A DNA stretch of 42,836 nucleotides from the NCBI GenBank assembly GCA_051955775.1, contig JBQCGJ010000244.1, positions 1-42,836 of the forward strand, read 5' to 3'. Origin of the DNA: Gaiellales bacterium. GTDB taxonomy: Bacteria; Actinomycetota; Thermoleophilia; Gaiellales; JAICJC01. Position 1 is the first letter of the stretch; every line of letters starts with the position of its first letter. The position numbers and the translations under genes were made by a program. Positions 2,934 through 33,469 of the stretch are shown piece after piece. A model generated the notes under the pieces. The model did not search any database. It had not been told where the DNA came from and worked only from the letters and a program-made list of their open reading frames with translations.

Positions 2934-3007
<74 letters not shown>

Positions 3008-28376: not shown

Positions 28377-29423
28377 GTGACGCGACGCGAGACGCTCACC
28401 TTCGCGGCCGTGTTCGGCCTGGCGGCGGTCGCGGTGATCTTGCGAATCGCCGGCGTCGCCGGGCAGGTGGTGTTCATCATGTCGGCGGCGTCGCTGATGG
28501 CGCTGGCGTGGCTGCTGGGGGAGGCCACCGACCAGGCCGGCGACACGGCCGGGCCGCGTGTGTCCGCGCTGCTCAACGCCTCCATGGGCAACCTGCCCGA
28601 GATGGTGATCGTGGTGCTCGCGATCAACGCGGGGCTTGCTGACATCGCCCGCGCGTCCATCATCGGCTCGGTGATCGGGAACATCCTGATGATCCTCGGC
28701 CTGTCGCTCGTGCTGGGAGGCTGGAAGAACGGCGTTCAGACCTTCAACCAGCGGCTGGCTGCCACCAACTCCTCGATGCTGGTGCTGGCGGTTGCCGGGC
28801 TGGGCGTGCCGACGCTGTTCGCCGCGGTCAACTCGGATGCACATGACGCGGAGGTGTTGTCGTGGTGGACCGCCGCGGCGCTGCTGGTCACGTACGTGGC
28901 CTACCTGTACTACTCGTTCACCACGCCGGGCCTGCGCTACCGCCACAAGCATCAGGGCGGGACGTGGACGCGCACGCAGGCGGTCGCGCTGCTGTGCCTG
29001 ACCGCGCTGGCGACCGGCGTGGTCAGCGAGGTGCTGGTGCACTCGATCGCGCCCACCGTGCGCGACCTGGGCGTGCCGCGGGCGTTCATCGGGCTGATCG
29101 TGGTGCCGTTCGTGGGGAACGCCGCCGAGCATTTCTCCGCCGTTCGCCTGGCCTACCGGAACAGCCTCGACTTCGCGATGGGCATCGCCTACGGGTCGGG
29201 CATCCAGATCGCCCTGGCCGCGTCGGCGCTGGCGGTGTTCGCGTCGATCCCGCTCGGCCCGAACCTGACGCTCGTCTTCCCGCCGCTGGAGCTGGCGGCC
29301 CTGGCGGCGGCGGCGCTGGTGTCCACGCTGGTCGCACGAGGCGGCGAGACCAACTGGCTCGAGGGCCTGCAGCTGCTGGTCATCTATTTCGTGGTTGCGG
29401 TGTCTTTTTGGTTGCTCGGCTGA
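28377..29423 (+). CDS. Ca2+/H+ antiporter (CAX/ChaA, CaCA family)
   Basis: Alpha repeats GNLPE and GNAAEH, SIIGS..GN, TNWLEG. Confidence 0.9.
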   Translation: MTRRETLTFAAVFGLAAVAVILRIAGVAGQVVFIMSAASLMALAWLLGEATDQAGDTAGPRVSALLNASMGNLPEMVIVVLAINAGLADIARASIIGSVIGNILMILGLSLVLGGWKNGVQTFNQRLAATNSSMLVLAVAGLGVPTLFAAVNSDAHDAEVLSWWTAAALLVTYVAYLYYSFTTPGLRYRHKHQGGTWTRTQAVALLCLTALATGVVSEVLVHSIAPTVRDLGVPRAFIGLIVVPFVGNAAEHFSAVRLAYRNSLDFAMGIAYGSGIQIALAASALAVFASIPLGPNLTLVFPPLELAALAAAALVSTLVARGGETNWLEGLQLLVIYFVVAVSFWLLG

Positions 29424-31695
29424 GCGAGGCTGGTCTGCGCGCACGGTTCGCCTCGCCACGCCGAGACGGGTCAGCCGCTGCCGCTGCCAGCAGCTCCAGT
29501 GTGCGCAGGGCGCCCTTCTTGGACAGCGGGTGGTTGAGGTCGCCGCACTTCGGCGACTGGACGCATGACGGGCATCCCCTGGCGCACGGGCACGCGCGCA
29601 GCAGCTCGGCCGTGGTGGCGGTCCAGCGCTCGAACAGCTCGAATCCGCGGGCGGCGATGCCGACCCCGCCCGGATGGCCGTCGTACACGAACACCGTGGG
29701 CAGGCCCGTGTGCATGTGGTGTGACGTCGACAACCCGCCGATGTCCCCGCGGTCGCACGTCGCGAGCAGCGGCAGCAGCGAGATCATGGCGTGTTCGGCC
29801 GCGTGCAGGCTGCCCAGCAGCGGCTCTCCGTCCGGCACGGCAGGACTGAACCACACCGCCTCGGTCGAATACGTGTGCGCGGGGAGCTCCAGCTCGGTGA
29901 GGTCGATCGGGGTGTGGTCGGCCAGCCGCCGGCGCTGGAACCCGACCACCTGCTCGCGCATCTCGACGCCTCCCAGCGTGAGGCAGATGCCCGCCTGCTC
30001 GCGTGCGGCGTGCTCCGCCTGCACGGTCACGGCCGAGACGGTCTTCGGCTGCGTGTAGTAGTCGCCGGCGAAGGGCTCGACGACAGCCACCCGCCCCTCC
30101 AGATCGAGCTCGCGCACCAGCAGCCGCTCGCCCTGGTGCAGATACACGGCGCCGGGATGCACCGTGGACGGCGCCCGGGCCACGTCGACCAGCCCGCACA
30201 GCGCGCCGGTGGCGGCATCCACCACCGCCACGGCGCCGGCGCCGGTCGATCGCAGTGAGATTCGGCCTGCCGGATGGTCGAGCCCGCGGAAGACGAATCC
30301 GGCCCGTGTCGGCGCCAGGTCGCTCAGCTCCGCCGCGAGCGCGAGCGCGCCGCGTCCGAAGTGCTGCTCGTCGGCGGGCACCAGCGGCCGTTCCGCCGCC
30401 GCCGCCAGCAGGTGGCCGGACAGCACAGCAGGATTCCCCGGATTGGCCACCGCGGCCTCCACCGGGCGCGCCAGCAGCTCGTCCGGGTGGCGTGCGAAGT
30501 ACTGGTCGAGCGCGTCGTCGCCCGCGACCATCACCCCCAGTCCCGCCCGCCGCCGGCCCGCACGGCCCCACTGCTGGCGAAGCGAGGCCATCGACCCGGG
30601 AAAGCCGACGGACACGGCGCAATCCAGGTGCCCGACATCCACGCCAAGCTCGAGCGCGCTGGTGGCGACGACCCCCAGCAGCCGGCCGCCGGCCAGGCCC
30701 TGCTCGATCTCGCGCCGCTGCTCGGGGGTGTACCCGGCCCGATACGGGGCGATGGCGGCCGCGGCCTGAGGCGCGTGCCGTTCCAGCGCCTCGCGGGCGT
30801 ACCGGTACATCAGCTCGCAACCGCGCCGGGACTTGGCGAACGCGATCGTGCGCACGTCGCGGGCGACCAGGCCGGCGAACAGGGCCGCGGCCTCGCCCAG
30901 CGCGCTGGCCCGGATGCCCAGCGCCTCGTCCAGCAGGGGCGGGTTCCACACGGCCAGCTCCCGCTCGGCCGCCGGCGAGCCGTCCTGCTCGATCAGCGTG
31001 ACCGGCCCACCGGCCAGCACCTCGGCCGCCGGCCCGGGGTTCGCGACGGTGGCGGACGCGAGCAGGAACCGCGGCCGAGATCCATAGGCCGCGCACACGC
31101 GTCGCAGCCGCGCCAGCACATTGGCCACGTGCGAGCCGAACACCCCGCGGTAGGCGTGTGCCTCGTCGACCACGACGAAGCGCAGGTTGGCCAGCAGGTC
31201 GGCCCAGGCGGCGTGTGCCGGGAGCAGTCCGACGTGCAGCATGTCCGGGTTGGTGAGCACCACGTTCGCCCACTCGCGGGCCTGGCGTCGCTGCGCCGGC
31301 GGCGTGTCCCCGTCGTACATGGCCAGCCGCAGGCCGGGCGGACGCAGGCCGGCCATCGAGCGCGCCTGGTCATGTGCCAGGGCCTTGGTGGGATACAGGT
31401 AGAGGGCGCAGGCCCGGCGGTCGCCGGCAACCGCATCCAGCACCGGCAGGTTGAACCCCAGCGACTTGCCCGATGCGGTGCCGGTGACGATCGCGATGTT
31501 GCCCAGCGCCGCCGCCGCAAATGCCTCGGACTGATGTGAGTAGAGCTGCTCGACGCCGGCCGCCCGCAGGGCCGCGGCCAGCTCGGGATGCAGGGTGTCG
31601 GGGAGCGGCGCCACCTGGGCCGGCCGGGCGGGCACGTCGCGCCGGGCAACCACCTGCTCCATGGCCAGCAGGTCTGCCCAGGCGGACGACGTCAC
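29380..31695 (-). CDS. DEAH helicase with C-terminal DUF1998 (MrfA/Hrq1/SftH-like)
   Basis: TASGKSL, DEAH, SAT, QQWGRAGRR; C..CPC..GCPSC zinc motif; GTGA overlap with pheA. Confidence 0.92.
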   Translation of the reverse strand: MTSSAWADLLAMEQVVARRDVPARPAQVAPLPDTLHPELAAALRAAGVEQLYSHQSEAFAAAALGNIAIVTGTASGKSLGFNLPVLDAVAGDRRACALYLYPTKALAHDQARSMAGLRPPGLRLAMYDGDTPPAQRRQAREWANVVLTNPDMLHVGLLPAHAAWADLLANLRFVVVDEAHAYRGVFGSHVANVLARLRRVCAAYGSRPRFLLASATVANPGPAAEVLAGGPVTLIEQDGSPAAERELAVWNPPLLDEALGIRASALGEAAALFAGLVARDVRTIAFAKSRRGCELMYRYAREALERHAPQAAAAIAPYRAGYTPEQRREIEQGLAGGRLLGVVATSALELGVDVGHLDCAVSVGFPGSMASLRQQWGRAGRRRAGLGVMVAGDDALDQYFARHPDELLARPVEAAVANPGNPAVLSGHLLAAAAERPLVPADEQHFGRGALALAAELSDLAPTRAGFVFRGLDHPAGRISLRSTGAGAVAVVDAATGALCGLVDVARAPSTVHPGAVYLHQGERLLVRELDLEGRVAVVEPFAGDYYTQPKTVSAVTVQAEHAAREQAGICLTLGGVEMREQVVGFQRRRLADHTPIDLTELELPAHTYSTEAVWFSPAVPDGEPLLGSLHAAEHAMISLLPLLATCDRGDIGGLSTSHHMHTGLPTVFVYDGHPGGVGIAARGFELFERWTATTAELLRACPCARGCPSCVQSPKCGDLNHPLSKKGALRTLELLAAAAADPSRRGEANRARRPASLSRATKKTPQPRNR

Positions 31696-32528
31696 GGCCG
31701 GGACGCGGCCGGATAACAGCCCAGGAAGCTCAGCTCGGCCACCTCGCGCTCCAGCGCGGCCAGCGCCTCCGACATGGGGGCGTCCAGCGGATGACCTTCG
31801 AGATCCGCGTAGAACTGGTAGTTCCACGGGCGTCCGGGGATGGGCCGGCTCTGCAGCGAGCACATGTTGACGCCGAAGGTCGCCAGCGGGTTGATCGCGG
31901 ATGCCAGCGCGCCGGGGTGGTGGTGGGTCACGAAACGCACCGCGGTGCGCCACTCGCGGCCGTCGTCACGGTCGAGCCGCGTGTGCGGGGCGATGGCCAC
32001 GAACCGCGTGTAGTTCTCGGCGTGGTCGGACACGTCGTTGAGGAGCACGGTCAGGCCCAGCCGCTCGCCGGCCCGGCGGGATGCGATCGCCGCCTGGGCC
32101 TGGTCGCGGGCCTCGGCCACGCGGCGGGCGGCGGCGGCGGTGGAGGGCGCCACATCCGGCAACGTGTCGGGCAGCGAGGACAGGAACCGCCGGCACTGCG
32201 CGAGCGCCGCCGGGTGGCTGTGGATCCGAGACAGAGCGTCGATGTTCGTGCCGGGCAGGCCGACCAGGCAGTGCGGGACCGGCAGCACCACCTCGTCGAC
32301 GATGGCCAGGGGCGCGTGCGACAGCAGGTCATAGGTCTCGGGGATGGCACCGGCCAGCGAGTTCTCGATCGGCAGCACGCCGCACGCCACCTCGCTCTTC
32401 GTCACCGCACGCATGACGTCCGCCGCCGACCGGCAGGGCTGCAGCTCGGCCGACGGGTACAGGCGGGCGGCCGCCTCCGCCGCGTACGCATCGGCGTCGC
32501 CGAAGTGGGCAATCATCATGCTGGTCAT
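31692..32528 (-). CDS. pheA: Prephenate dehydratase with ACT domain
   Basis: LPIENSLAG, SHPAALAQC, NYTRF, PGAL and LQSRP motifs. Confidence 0.93.
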   Translation of the reverse strand: MTSMMIAHFGDADAYAAEAAARLYPSAELQPCRSAADVMRAVTKSEVACGVLPIENSLAGAIPETYDLLSHAPLAIVDEVVLPVPHCLVGLPGTNIDALSRIHSHPAALAQCRRFLSSLPDTLPDVAPSTAAAARRVAEARDQAQAAIASRRAGERLGLTVLLNDVSDHAENYTRFVAIAPHTRLDRDDGREWRTAVRFVTHHHPGALASAINPLATFGVNMCSLQSRPIPGRPWNYQFYADLEGHPLDAPMSEALAALEREVAELSFLGCYPAASRP

Positions 32529-32542
32529 CCGTCCTCCGTCAT

Positions 32543-32570
32543 AAAAAAAGCCTCCGGGATCCGGAGGCTT
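32543..32570 (-). terminator. Attenuator intrinsic terminator upstream of pheA
   Basis: AAGCCTCCGG-ATC-CCGGAGGC followed by T7, 14 nt before the pheA ATG. Confidence 0.9.
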
Positions 32571-32601
32571 CGAGCCGCGTCGTGATGGTCTGGCCGCGCG
32601 C

Positions 32602-32661
32602 TCAGATGCCTCGGTGGGGGCTGGTAAAGGCGAAGCCGAACGCGAAGCAGGCGCGATACAT
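32602..32661 (-). CDS. Phe-rich leader peptide MYRACFAFGFAFTSPHRGI (pheL-like)
   Basis: Four Phe within 7 codons, directly upstream of the terminator and pheA; TGA-TAGCAT lies 7 nt before the ATG. Confidence 0.85.
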   Translation of the reverse strand: MYRACFAFGFAFTSPHRGI

Positions 32662-32668
32662 TGGGCGG

Positions 32669-33469
32669 ATGCTATCAGAGCGCCAGATGGTGCAGGCGCT
32701 GGCCTCGGTCGCCGTTGGCATTGGAGACGACGCGGCGGTGCTGGAGGGCGGCCTGGTGTTCGCCTCGGACATGCTGGTGGAGGGCCAGCACTTCCAGATC
32801 GGGCGGCTGGACGCCTTCGCGGCCGGCCGGCGGGCGGCCGGAGCCAACCTGTCCGACATGGCGGCGATGGCGGCCGAGCCGCTGTGCATGGTGGCCGCGT
32901 TCGGGTTACCGGAGGGTTTCGAAGAGGTGCAGCGGCTGGCCGAGGGAATCGCCTCGTACGATGTGCCGCTGGTCGGCGGAGACCTCACTCGCAGCGACCG
33001 GCTGGTGATCTCGATCGCAGTGCTGGGGCGGGCCGAGCGGCCCGTGCTGCGCTCCGGGGGACGGCCGGGCGACCTGCTGGCGGTGACCGGTGAGCTGGGG
33101 CGCCAGGCTGCCACCGGCTACACCGCGCCGGTGACGCCGCGGCTCGCGGAGGGACGCGCGCTGGGCTCGGTGGCGACCGCCATGATCGACCTCTCCGACG
33201 GCATCGCCTCGGATGCGAGGCTGCTGGCCGAGGCGTCGGGCTGCGGCGCCGTGATCGAGCTCGCCACGCTGCCCATCGCTCCGGGCGCGACGCTCGAGCA
33301 GGCGGCCGGCGGCGGCGAGGACTACGAGCTCCTGGCTGCGCTGCCCGGCGGCGCCGAGATGCCTGTCCCGATGACGGTGGTCGGACATCTGACCGCCGAG
33401 CCGGGGTTCCGTCTGCTGGACGAGTCGGGGCGAGCGCGCGACATCCGCGGCTGGGACCACTTCGCATGA
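32669..33469 (+). CDS. thiL: Thiamine-monophosphate kinase
   Basis: GIGDDAAV, DMLVEGQHF, NLSDMAAM, GGD, IDLSDG, GGEDYEL and GWDHF motifs. Confidence 0.94.
   Translation: MLSERQMVQALASVAVGIGDDAAVLEGGLVFASDMLVEGQHFQIGRLDAFAAGRRAAGANLSDMAAMAAEPLCMVAAFGLPEGFEEVQRLAEGIASYDVPLVGGDLTRSDRLVISIAVLGRAERPVLRSGGRPGDLLAVTGELGRQAATGYTAPVTPRLAEGRALGSVATAMIDLSDGIASDARLLAEASGCGAVIELATLPIAPGATLEQAAGGGEDYELLAALPGGAEMPVPMTVVGHLTAEPGFRLLDESGRARDIRGWDHFA

Follow-up and report, generated by a model that had tools for sequence, protein, structure and literature searches.

Leader-peptide control of phenylalanine biosynthesis is described for pheL in the gamma-proteobacteria, with few candidates elsewhere (Gurvich 2011, PMC3082878). 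For Actinobacteria, the study of Seliverstov (2005, PMC1262725) reports attenuators of trp, ilv/leu and cys genes, and states for its own genome set that none was seen for phenylalanine and that no conserved RNA structure was found upstream of phenylalanine genes. Related leaders, as presented in the respective sources, include the Corynebacterium glutamicum aroR leader (Phe-Tyr-Phe) located before aroF (review, PMC11802643), Phe/Tyr-containing upstream open reading frames (uORFs) before shikimate-pathway genes (Stav 2019, PMC6429828), leaderless Cys-sensing short open reading frames (ORFs) from mycobacteria (Canestrari 2020, 10.1101/834739) and the leader of C. glutamicum ilvBNC, which is treated there as leaderless (PMC11857589). 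Here, we describe a 140-nt gap between the divergent genes thiL and pheA in a 42,836-nt stretch of DNA from a Gaiellales bacterium (contig JBQCGJ010000244.1; hereafter the window, to whose positions all coordinates refer). This gap houses a whole leader, which we read, with a probability of roughly 85%, as a ribosome-mediated, Phe-responsive, leaderless leader-peptide transcription attenuator of pheA.

Our full-text literature searches found no pheA attenuator for Actinobacteria or Gaiellales. A preliminary description of the stretch had likewise named no actinobacterial precedent for pheA, in agreement with the statement on phenylalanine in PMC1262725. The Gaiellales leader has in common with C. 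glutamicum aroR-aroF that it is a Phe-containing actinobacterial leader, and for aroR-aroF the review reports that transcription of the aromatic operon goes up under Phe limitation (PMC11802643). The aroR leader differs in that it controls DAHP synthase, carries a Phe-Tyr-Phe motif and belongs to the class Actinomycetes (Neshat 2014, as cited in PMC11802643). The mycobacterial poly-Cys ORFs offer another parallel, as a leaderless short ORF rich in end-product codons heads the operon and ribosome pausing provides the signal, but according to the same source they sense Cys and work through Shine-Dalgarno sequestration in a very stable duplex without an intrinsic terminator (10.1101/834739). The actinobacterial trp, ilvB and leuA attenuators are similar in having leader peptides and terminators, the C. 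glutamicum ilvB leader being treated as leaderless as well (PMC1262725, PMC11857589), and differ in sensing other amino acids, as reported in PMC1262725.

Architecture of the pheA leader

Leader and pheA are read on the minus strand of the window, where the extended -10-like sequence, the 7-nt spacer, the uORF, the hairpin with its U7, the GGAGG and pheA itself all lie at the positions assigned to them in the preliminary description. The putative promoter element TG-A-TAGCAT (TG-N-TAGCAT) occupies 32669..32677 and overlaps codons 1-3 of thiL. It is followed by the spacer CCGCCCA and by the uORF at 32602..32661 (ATG at 32661, TGA at 32604-32602), whose 19 codons plus UGA encode MYRACFAFGFAFTSPHRGI. 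The four alternating Phe codons that had been noticed in this frame are indeed present, as TTC at 32646-44, 32640-38 and 32634-32 and TTT at 32628-26. With four Phe in 19 codons, compared with 3.1% genome-wide, and a prephenate dehydratase gene downstream, the frame is enriched in codons for the pathway's end product.

Downstream of the Phe codons, folding places the 5' strand of an antiterminator (region 2; CCGAGGC, the stop codon UGA and GAGC-CGCG) at 32595..32614 and its 3' strand (region 3) at 32561..32579. The latter includes GCCUCCGG, which at the same time forms the 5' arm of an intrinsic terminator (regions 3 and 4; 32543..32571). This terminator, recognised by a terminator scan and by its conservation, consists of an 11-bp stem, a 3-nt loop and U7. 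Its hairpin GAAGCCTCCGG-ATC-CCGGAGGCTTT is perfect (32571-32547), the T7 run spans 32549-32543, and the site at 32571-32543 is the sole terminator-like one between 31500 and 34000. The Shine-Dalgarno sequence GGAGG of pheA follows at 32533..32537, with GGAGG-like sequences at the same place in relatives, and pheA extends over 31692..32528 with its ATG at 32528. Profile matches assign the 278-aa product as a monofunctional prephenate dehydratase with an ACT domain. The match to Pfam PDT (PF00800) has an E-value of 6.5e-54, the ACT match lies under its cutoff, and the scores for NF008866 (220 bits) and NF008865 (214.1 bits) are both under the curated cutoffs. We consider pheA most likely to be the gene regulated by the leader.

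Conservation in the family

Gaiellales is a deep-branching actinobacterial order, sampled here only as metagenome-assembled genomes (MAGs). Two samples with overlapping genomes cover the family of the window: 25 loci from 7 genera, and 65 family-type loci that collapse into 51 distinct leaders. All 25 loci of the first sample display TCTG-N-TAGCAT, a spacer of 7-9 nt, ATGTAY, a short frame, a terminator, a Shine-Dalgarno sequence and pheA. The uORF is intact in 24 of them, with 16-19 codons and 2-5 Phe. At the one exception (genome G011, locus L025) the frame breaks in uORF and pheA alike, as would follow from errors in the assembly or from decay of the unit as a whole.

The family leaders follow the peptide consensus M-Y-(R/S)-x-x-F-x-(G/F)-F-(A/L/P)-F-T-x-x-x-G-G-(I/V). 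Between the AUG and the conserved UUU, the reading frame is kept in 50 of the 51 distinct leaders, which encode peptides of 16-19 aa, and length changes in the variable N-terminal part come in multiples of three. The start codon, the UUU and the UGA stop are invariant columns of the alignment, and the distance from UUU to UGA is 24 nt in all but one leader (50/51). In the genome of the window (70.7% GC), UUU makes up 3.9% of Phe codons and Phe 3.1% of all codons, as counted over 1141 long ORFs with high GC content at third codon positions. For a sensor, a control codon that is both rare and fixed would be expected, and a precedent exists in the Salmonella leu leader with its rare CUA codons.

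A covariance model built from the 51 distinct leaders (R1) matches 43 of 45 other family genomes in an order-wide sample, mostly in single copy, at 75-108 bits (E 4e-20 to 2e-30); both genomes that it misses are incomplete (79% and 70% complete). In the genome of the window R1 matches the pheA leader locus only. A crude scan of the whole 3.4-Mb genome likewise returned that locus alone; it required a short ORF in which one amino acid other than A, R, G, P, L, S or V is clustered, next a perfect hairpin followed by a T-run, and then a long ORF. With this single match and with its conservation across the family, the element exceeds what chance would be expected to give.

Terminator and antiterminator folds

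The preliminary description had suggested aligning the pheA upstream regions of relatives to look for Phe-rich uORFs and covarying hairpins, and the aligned regions hold both. In the alignment, 92% of the cells of the terminator helix are paired, three pairs carry compensatory changes, and the covariation score is reached by none of 500 shuffles. The mean energy of this helix over the 51 leaders is -18.6 kcal/mol. Its 5' arm GCCUCC is complementary to the GGAGGC at the 3' end of the uORF. This GGAGGC:GCCUCC core of the antiterminator is paired in 91% of cells when kept in register, compared with 41-65% when slid by 1-3 columns. In the inner antiterminator helices the sequence differs between clades and the pairing stays.

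Constrained folding of the 51 leaders allows for a comparison of the two ribosome positions. With the ribosome at UUU and the 3' arm of the terminator not yet made, the antiterminator folds in 50 of 51 leaders as a single long hairpin from GGAGGC to GCCUCC, comprising 16-21 bp with a mean energy of -28.3 kcal/mol (mean z-score of -3.0 against dinucleotide shuffles in the 25-locus set). With the ribosome at the stop codon, a structure of -3.3 kcal/mol is left, and the full-length leader folds the terminator in 50/51. The stop codon is itself partly paired within the antiterminator in every one of the 51 leaders, and a ribosome of the assumed footprint, when placed there, covers on average 98% of the antiterminator 5' strand. 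In 21 of the 25 loci, UUU and GGNGG are 15 nt apart, a geometry that suits both the stalled and the stop position for the assumed footprint length. For the leader of the window, folding reproduced the proposed pairing of GAGGC and UGAGC with GCUCG and GCCUC (-24.6 kcal/mol, 32615-32561), and also the proposed sequestration of GAGGC by the GCCUU amid the Phe codons, the latter when only the first part of the uORF was masked. Conservation, terminator covariation and the feasibility and geometry of the folds are in this way established by computation, as are the sequence features themselves.

Folds of the leader as one static structure are less informative. The minimum-energy fold of the window leader alone is not distinguishable from shuffles (z -1.03), and an RNAalifold consensus of the whole leader retains only the antiterminator core and a CUUC:GGGG helix, which does not make a usable single structure. 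Failure of one consensus fold is as expected of a switch.

Several results weigh against an attenuator and have to be set beside this evidence. The placement of UUU in the A site with a ribosome footprint reaching 13 nt downstream is an assumption of the constrained folding. Changes on both sides of the antiterminator core affect two pairs, a number matched by 163 of 500 shuffles; this covariation is weak because both sides of the core are nearly invariant. The inner helices cannot be counted on the sequence alignment, since their 3' partner shifts position between clades. At equilibrium, the full-length leader with a ribosome at UUU still has the terminator as its minimum-energy structure in 39 of 51 cases; the switch must therefore be kinetic, relying on co-transcriptional folding as in classical attenuators. 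Without any ribosome, 8 of the 51 full-length leaders favour the antiterminator. Eleven of the 65 leaders have only two Phe codons. Finally, the match of the leader to the Rfam family Phe_leader (RF01859), at 25.2 bits, falls short of the gathering threshold of 55 bits.

The resulting model can be outlined as follows, with transcription start, uORF translation, Phe dependence and termination in vivo all predicted from sequence. The extended -10 (TGnTAGCAT) would start transcription at or 1-2 nt before the uORF AUG, and the mRNA from which the leader peptide is translated would be leaderless. Under a shortage of Phe-tRNA, the ribosome would stall at the F-x-F-x-F codons, chiefly at the invariant rare UUU, with its edge ~13 nt downstream, just short of GGAGGC. 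The segment from GGAGGC through the stop codon would then be accessible for pairing with the segment that has GCCUCC at its end, and the resulting antiterminator of 16-21 bp would occupy the 5' arm of the terminator, so that RNA polymerase would continue into pheA. When Phe-tRNA is ample, the ribosome would reach the UGA and cover nearly all of the antiterminator 5' strand, upon which the GCCUCCGG/CCGGAGGC hairpin with its U7 would form and transcription would end before pheA. Expression of pheA would in this manner most likely be tuned to the supply of charged tRNA-Phe. The comparative and folding evidence taken together argues for the pheL-type, ribosome-mediated Phe attenuation put forward in the preliminary description.

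Distribution beyond the family and possible alternative outputs

Diverged Phe-rich uORFs precede pheA in two other Gaiellales families, f4 and f3. The f4 genome G043 (locus L146) carries the uORF MTLAATFAFIGFTRISGG with GGGAGGC before its stop codon, followed by a hairpin with an interrupted U-run and then by pheA; a thiL-like gene is divergent there at a distance of ~50 nt and has no overlap with the promoter. In f3, the uORFs before pheA read MWNAPTPSCFFGTFFGFAFTG in G030 and MPRARDFFAFSFAFGARIFAR in G026 and G034, and contain up to six Phe (L027, L028, L161/L165). Their UAG stop codon is located in the 5' arm of a perfect hairpin of 11-12 bp (GCTAGCCGGCG...CGCCGGCTAGC) without a U-tract, which suggests that the f3 leaders may represent a different, non-terminator output of a related sensor.

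A similar output might be considered for the window, with the uORF sensing Phe and acting on pheA translation (by coupling, re-initiation or Shine-Dalgarno access), on Rho-dependent polarity or on how stable the mRNA is, with hairpin and U-run in a structural role only. Besides the f3 leaders (L027, L028 and L161), whose uORF stop lies inside a hairpin that lacks a U-tract, such a view could draw on the mycobacterial leaderless poly-Cys short ORFs, for which action on translation is reported (10.1101/834739), and on the terminator 3' arm CCGGAGGC, which looks like a Shine-Dalgarno sequence. We regard it as improbable. In the family of the window the hairpin has a conserved U-run and compensatory changes in the style of a canonical terminator, the antiterminator competes for precisely the 5' arm of that hairpin, and the Shine-Dalgarno sequence of pheA lies outside both alternative folds.

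Still less probable is control of the terminator without a ribosome, by a protein, a T-box-like tRNA or a small molecule, with the uORF being incidental. The sequence GGCUUCGCCUUUACC is kept even at synonymous sites and could mark a binding site for such a factor. However, the frame is kept despite length differences in 50 of 51 leaders and its start and stop are invariant, the conserved codons are those of the product of the regulated pathway, and the leaders of the other families stay Phe-rich as their nucleotides drift. Moreover, no Rfam family besides Phe_leader matches with E < 0.2.

Returning to the attenuator itself, R1 retrieves few leaders beyond the family. Only G043 (L146) and G030 were real pheA leaders among its matches outside the family in the order sample. 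The partial matches there turned out to be terminators that stand ahead of trpE (with WWW in its leader), of an ACT-domain gene and of a metY-like gene, and one (L145) was coding sequence. Outside Gaiellales, R1 gave nothing credible in 150 genomes of the class: of six weak matches that were inspected, two were a tRNA with a terminator, three were coding sequence and one was another terminator, and the uninspected rest had at most 26 bits. By direct inspection, no Phe-rich uORF was seen before pheA at 11 other Gaiellales loci (four in f2, two in f5, three in f4 and two in f3), at 23 loci from further families of Thermoleophilia or at 28 that represent 27 actinobacterial families outside that class (two of the genomes being flagged as unpublished), in limited samples that rely on pheA starts estimated from alignments and do not prove absence. 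In the frames listed at L213, L222 and L223, from other actinobacterial families, the Phe codons are scattered or number only two.

Leader-like features of other kinds occur at further loci. Loci L142, L143 and L144 (f2, genus g12), which match R1 in part, have what looks like a classical trp leader, MRTTPTGAWWWPMPGRDPVR, with three Trp and a GC-rich hairpin with a U-run, ~30 nt before a trpE-like gene (MNPTTPRPK...LESVEGG). At L140, L141 and L150 (f2, genus g28), a hairpin with a U-run (GAGGCCTCGGATTTTCCGGGGCCTTTTT) is conserved directly before a gene starting MTDDRYLIRLALPDRPGG, which appears ACT-domain-like by eye; no leader peptide was recognised at these loci. Locus L081, from a Chloroflexota MAG, contains a frame MLNQRFTARAFLCFAFITPPL with five Phe and an FAF motif ~150 nt upstream of pheA, which may be an independent Phe leader.

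Comparison with Escherichia coli pheL and pheM

The Phe_leader match covers 32541-32665 over the full length of the Rfam model (E 0.089) and is the one match of that family that reaches E<=1 anywhere in the genome. Conversely, R1 run against the E. coli K-12 chromosome ranks pheL first, with 40.8 bits and an E-value of 1.9e-9 (rough calibration), followed by thrL second (25.7 bits), pheM third (22.0 bits) and hisL fifth (16.8 bits; L193-L195 among the loci). Roughly 25 bits of the score can therefore be put down to attenuator architecture in general, and some 15 further bits to pheL in particular.

E. coli pheL-pheA and the Gaiellales locus both have a Phe-rich leader peptide before pheA and a four-segment terminator/antiterminator design. 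Even the switch sequences are nearly the same, namely UUCGCNUU(C/U)...UUUACC..CCC, GGGAGGC, GGCCUCC and GGGGGCC with a U-run; in E. coli pheL they read UUCGCAUUC...UUUACCUUCCCC, GGGAGGC, GGCCUCCC and GGGGGGCC, then the U-run. The differences concern both the sensor and its setting. The pheL start codon is preceded by 5' sequence, whereas the Gaiellales leader lacks a Shine-Dalgarno sequence and is probably leaderless. The dense FFFAFFFTF of pheL contrasts with an alternating F-x-F-x-F with 2-5 Phe. GGAGGC follows the stop codon in pheL, while in Gaiellales it falls within the uORF, just ahead of the stop. The enzyme under control is a fused chorismate mutase/prephenate dehydratase in E. coli and monofunctional in Gaiellales, and the two bacteria belong to different phyla. 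E. coli pheM-pheST resembles the locus in its Phe-rich leader, in the AGGAGGC just after the stop codon and in its terminator GCCUCC...GGAGGC with U7. It differs in that it regulates Phe-tRNA synthetase, is proteobacterial and has upstream leader sequence.

One explanation for the common switch, UUC/UUU-ACC-CCC, GGGAGGC, GCCUCC and GGRGGC with a U-run, is convergence dictated by the Phe codons. A simple rationale is that C-flanked UUC/UUU pairs with GGAGG, GGAGG with CCUCC, and CCUCC with GGRGG. Alternatively, the regulatory cassette would have been transferred long ago.

Probable leaderless start and the divergent thiL gene

TANNNT is the usual -10 hexamer of Actinobacteria. The hexamer before the uORF AUG is TAGCAT in 62 and TACCAT in 3 of the 65 loci, with TG two bases upstream in all 65, and its distance to the AUG is 7 nt in 5 loci, 8 nt in 57 and 9 nt in 3. 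The putative -10 is thus placed close to the AUG at every locus, and the spacer CCGCCCA is not purine-rich and contains no Shine-Dalgarno sequence. The leader transcript is probably leaderless, and the leaderless leader peptide suggested in the preliminary description gains support as the probable arrangement from the constant hexamer and TG 7-9 nt before the AUG.

The neighbouring gene thiL (thiamine-phosphate kinase; 32669..33469, plus strand) scores 202.9 bits against TIGR01379, above the cutoff of 184.15, and its start codon is located inside the leader -10. Because thiL is divergent, the TGA in front of TAGCAT is not the stop codon of an upstream gene. Position 14 of the TIGR01379 profile aligns to residue 38 of the ORF, which puts the thiL start near M30 (32669). 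thiL is divergent in 25/25 family loci, and in 22 of these the alignment begins at residue 1 of the M30 form. The ATG at 32669 is the reverse complement of the CAT in TAGCAT, and the -10 bases on the other strand make up thiL codons 1-3, ATG-CTA-(T/C/G)CA. The codons that the -10 imposes on thiL are rare in its own genome, CTA accounting for 0.4% of Leu, TCA for 3.5% of Ser and CCA for 2.9% of Pro codons. Residue 3 of thiL varies between Ser, Pro and Ala while the CA of its codon is kept; the constraint therefore acts on the DNA, as expected of an extended -10.

The start of the uORF has a matching feature on the opposite strand. CAATGTA is invariant there in 25/25 loci, and its plus-strand reading, TACATTG, precedes the thiL ATG by 6-8 nt (6 nt in the window). 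TACATT at 32657..32662 (plus strand), the reverse complement of A-ATG-TA at the uORF start, is a candidate -10 of a leaderless thiL transcript. All 65 family loci have Tyr at codon 2 of the uORF, and a residue other than Tyr stands there in the diverged leaders of other families, in which there is no overlap with thiL. We read the leader and thiL promoters as an overlapping, divergent and probably leaderless pair, with both 5' ends being predicted positions. Such a pair would render RNA polymerase binding mutually exclusive, so that initiation of thiL and of the pheA leader would be linked.

The least probable alternative is that the block is conserved chiefly as the promoter and start region of thiL, with a hairpin that insulates the genes and a Phe frame that is a by-product: the first two uORF codons and the -10 do overlap the thiL start and part of the conservation looks DNA-level, but conserved sequence reaches ~110 nt from thiL towards pheA and takes in stop codon, antiterminator and terminator, all on the pheA side, G043 (f4) has Phe uORF, terminator and pheA with thiL ~50 nt further off, and the f3 Phe uORFs occur without an adjacent thiL.

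For the attenuator, it is a tentative idea, to which we give somewhat less than even odds, that the locus goes beyond a plain example of its kind, either through the convergence or old transfer of its switch sequences or through a promoter pair in which each start codon sits in the -10 hexamer of the other.

Other features of the window

A DEAD/DEAH helicase gene with an MrfA Zn-binding domain (29380-31665, minus strand) begins ~30 nt past the pheA stop codon. No terminator-like site was found in the interval between the two, and the same order is seen in 19 of 25 family loci, with a gap of about 30-69 nt. The helicase may be co-transcribed with pheA and hence be under the attenuator. A tRNA gene at 2934-3007 (minus strand) is the only Rfam match of the window at gathering thresholds.

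Implications

The mechanism proposed here is a known, textbook one, in a bacterial group where it is not described for pheA. At ~120 nt, the leader is a compact example whose letters disclose promoter, leaderless sensor ORF, antiterminator and terminator alike, and it would therefore be suited to transfer into a model actinobacterium. Its likeness to pheL and pheM provides a specific example with which to ask if the codons that attenuator RNAs sense also constrain these RNAs. For genome annotation, both the 19-codon gene and the true start of thiL would escape standard pipelines. To our knowledge, gene regulation in Gaiellales has been little studied. The attenuator would extend Phe-sensing control of pheA to Actinomycetota and to Gaiellales, an abundant soil lineage.

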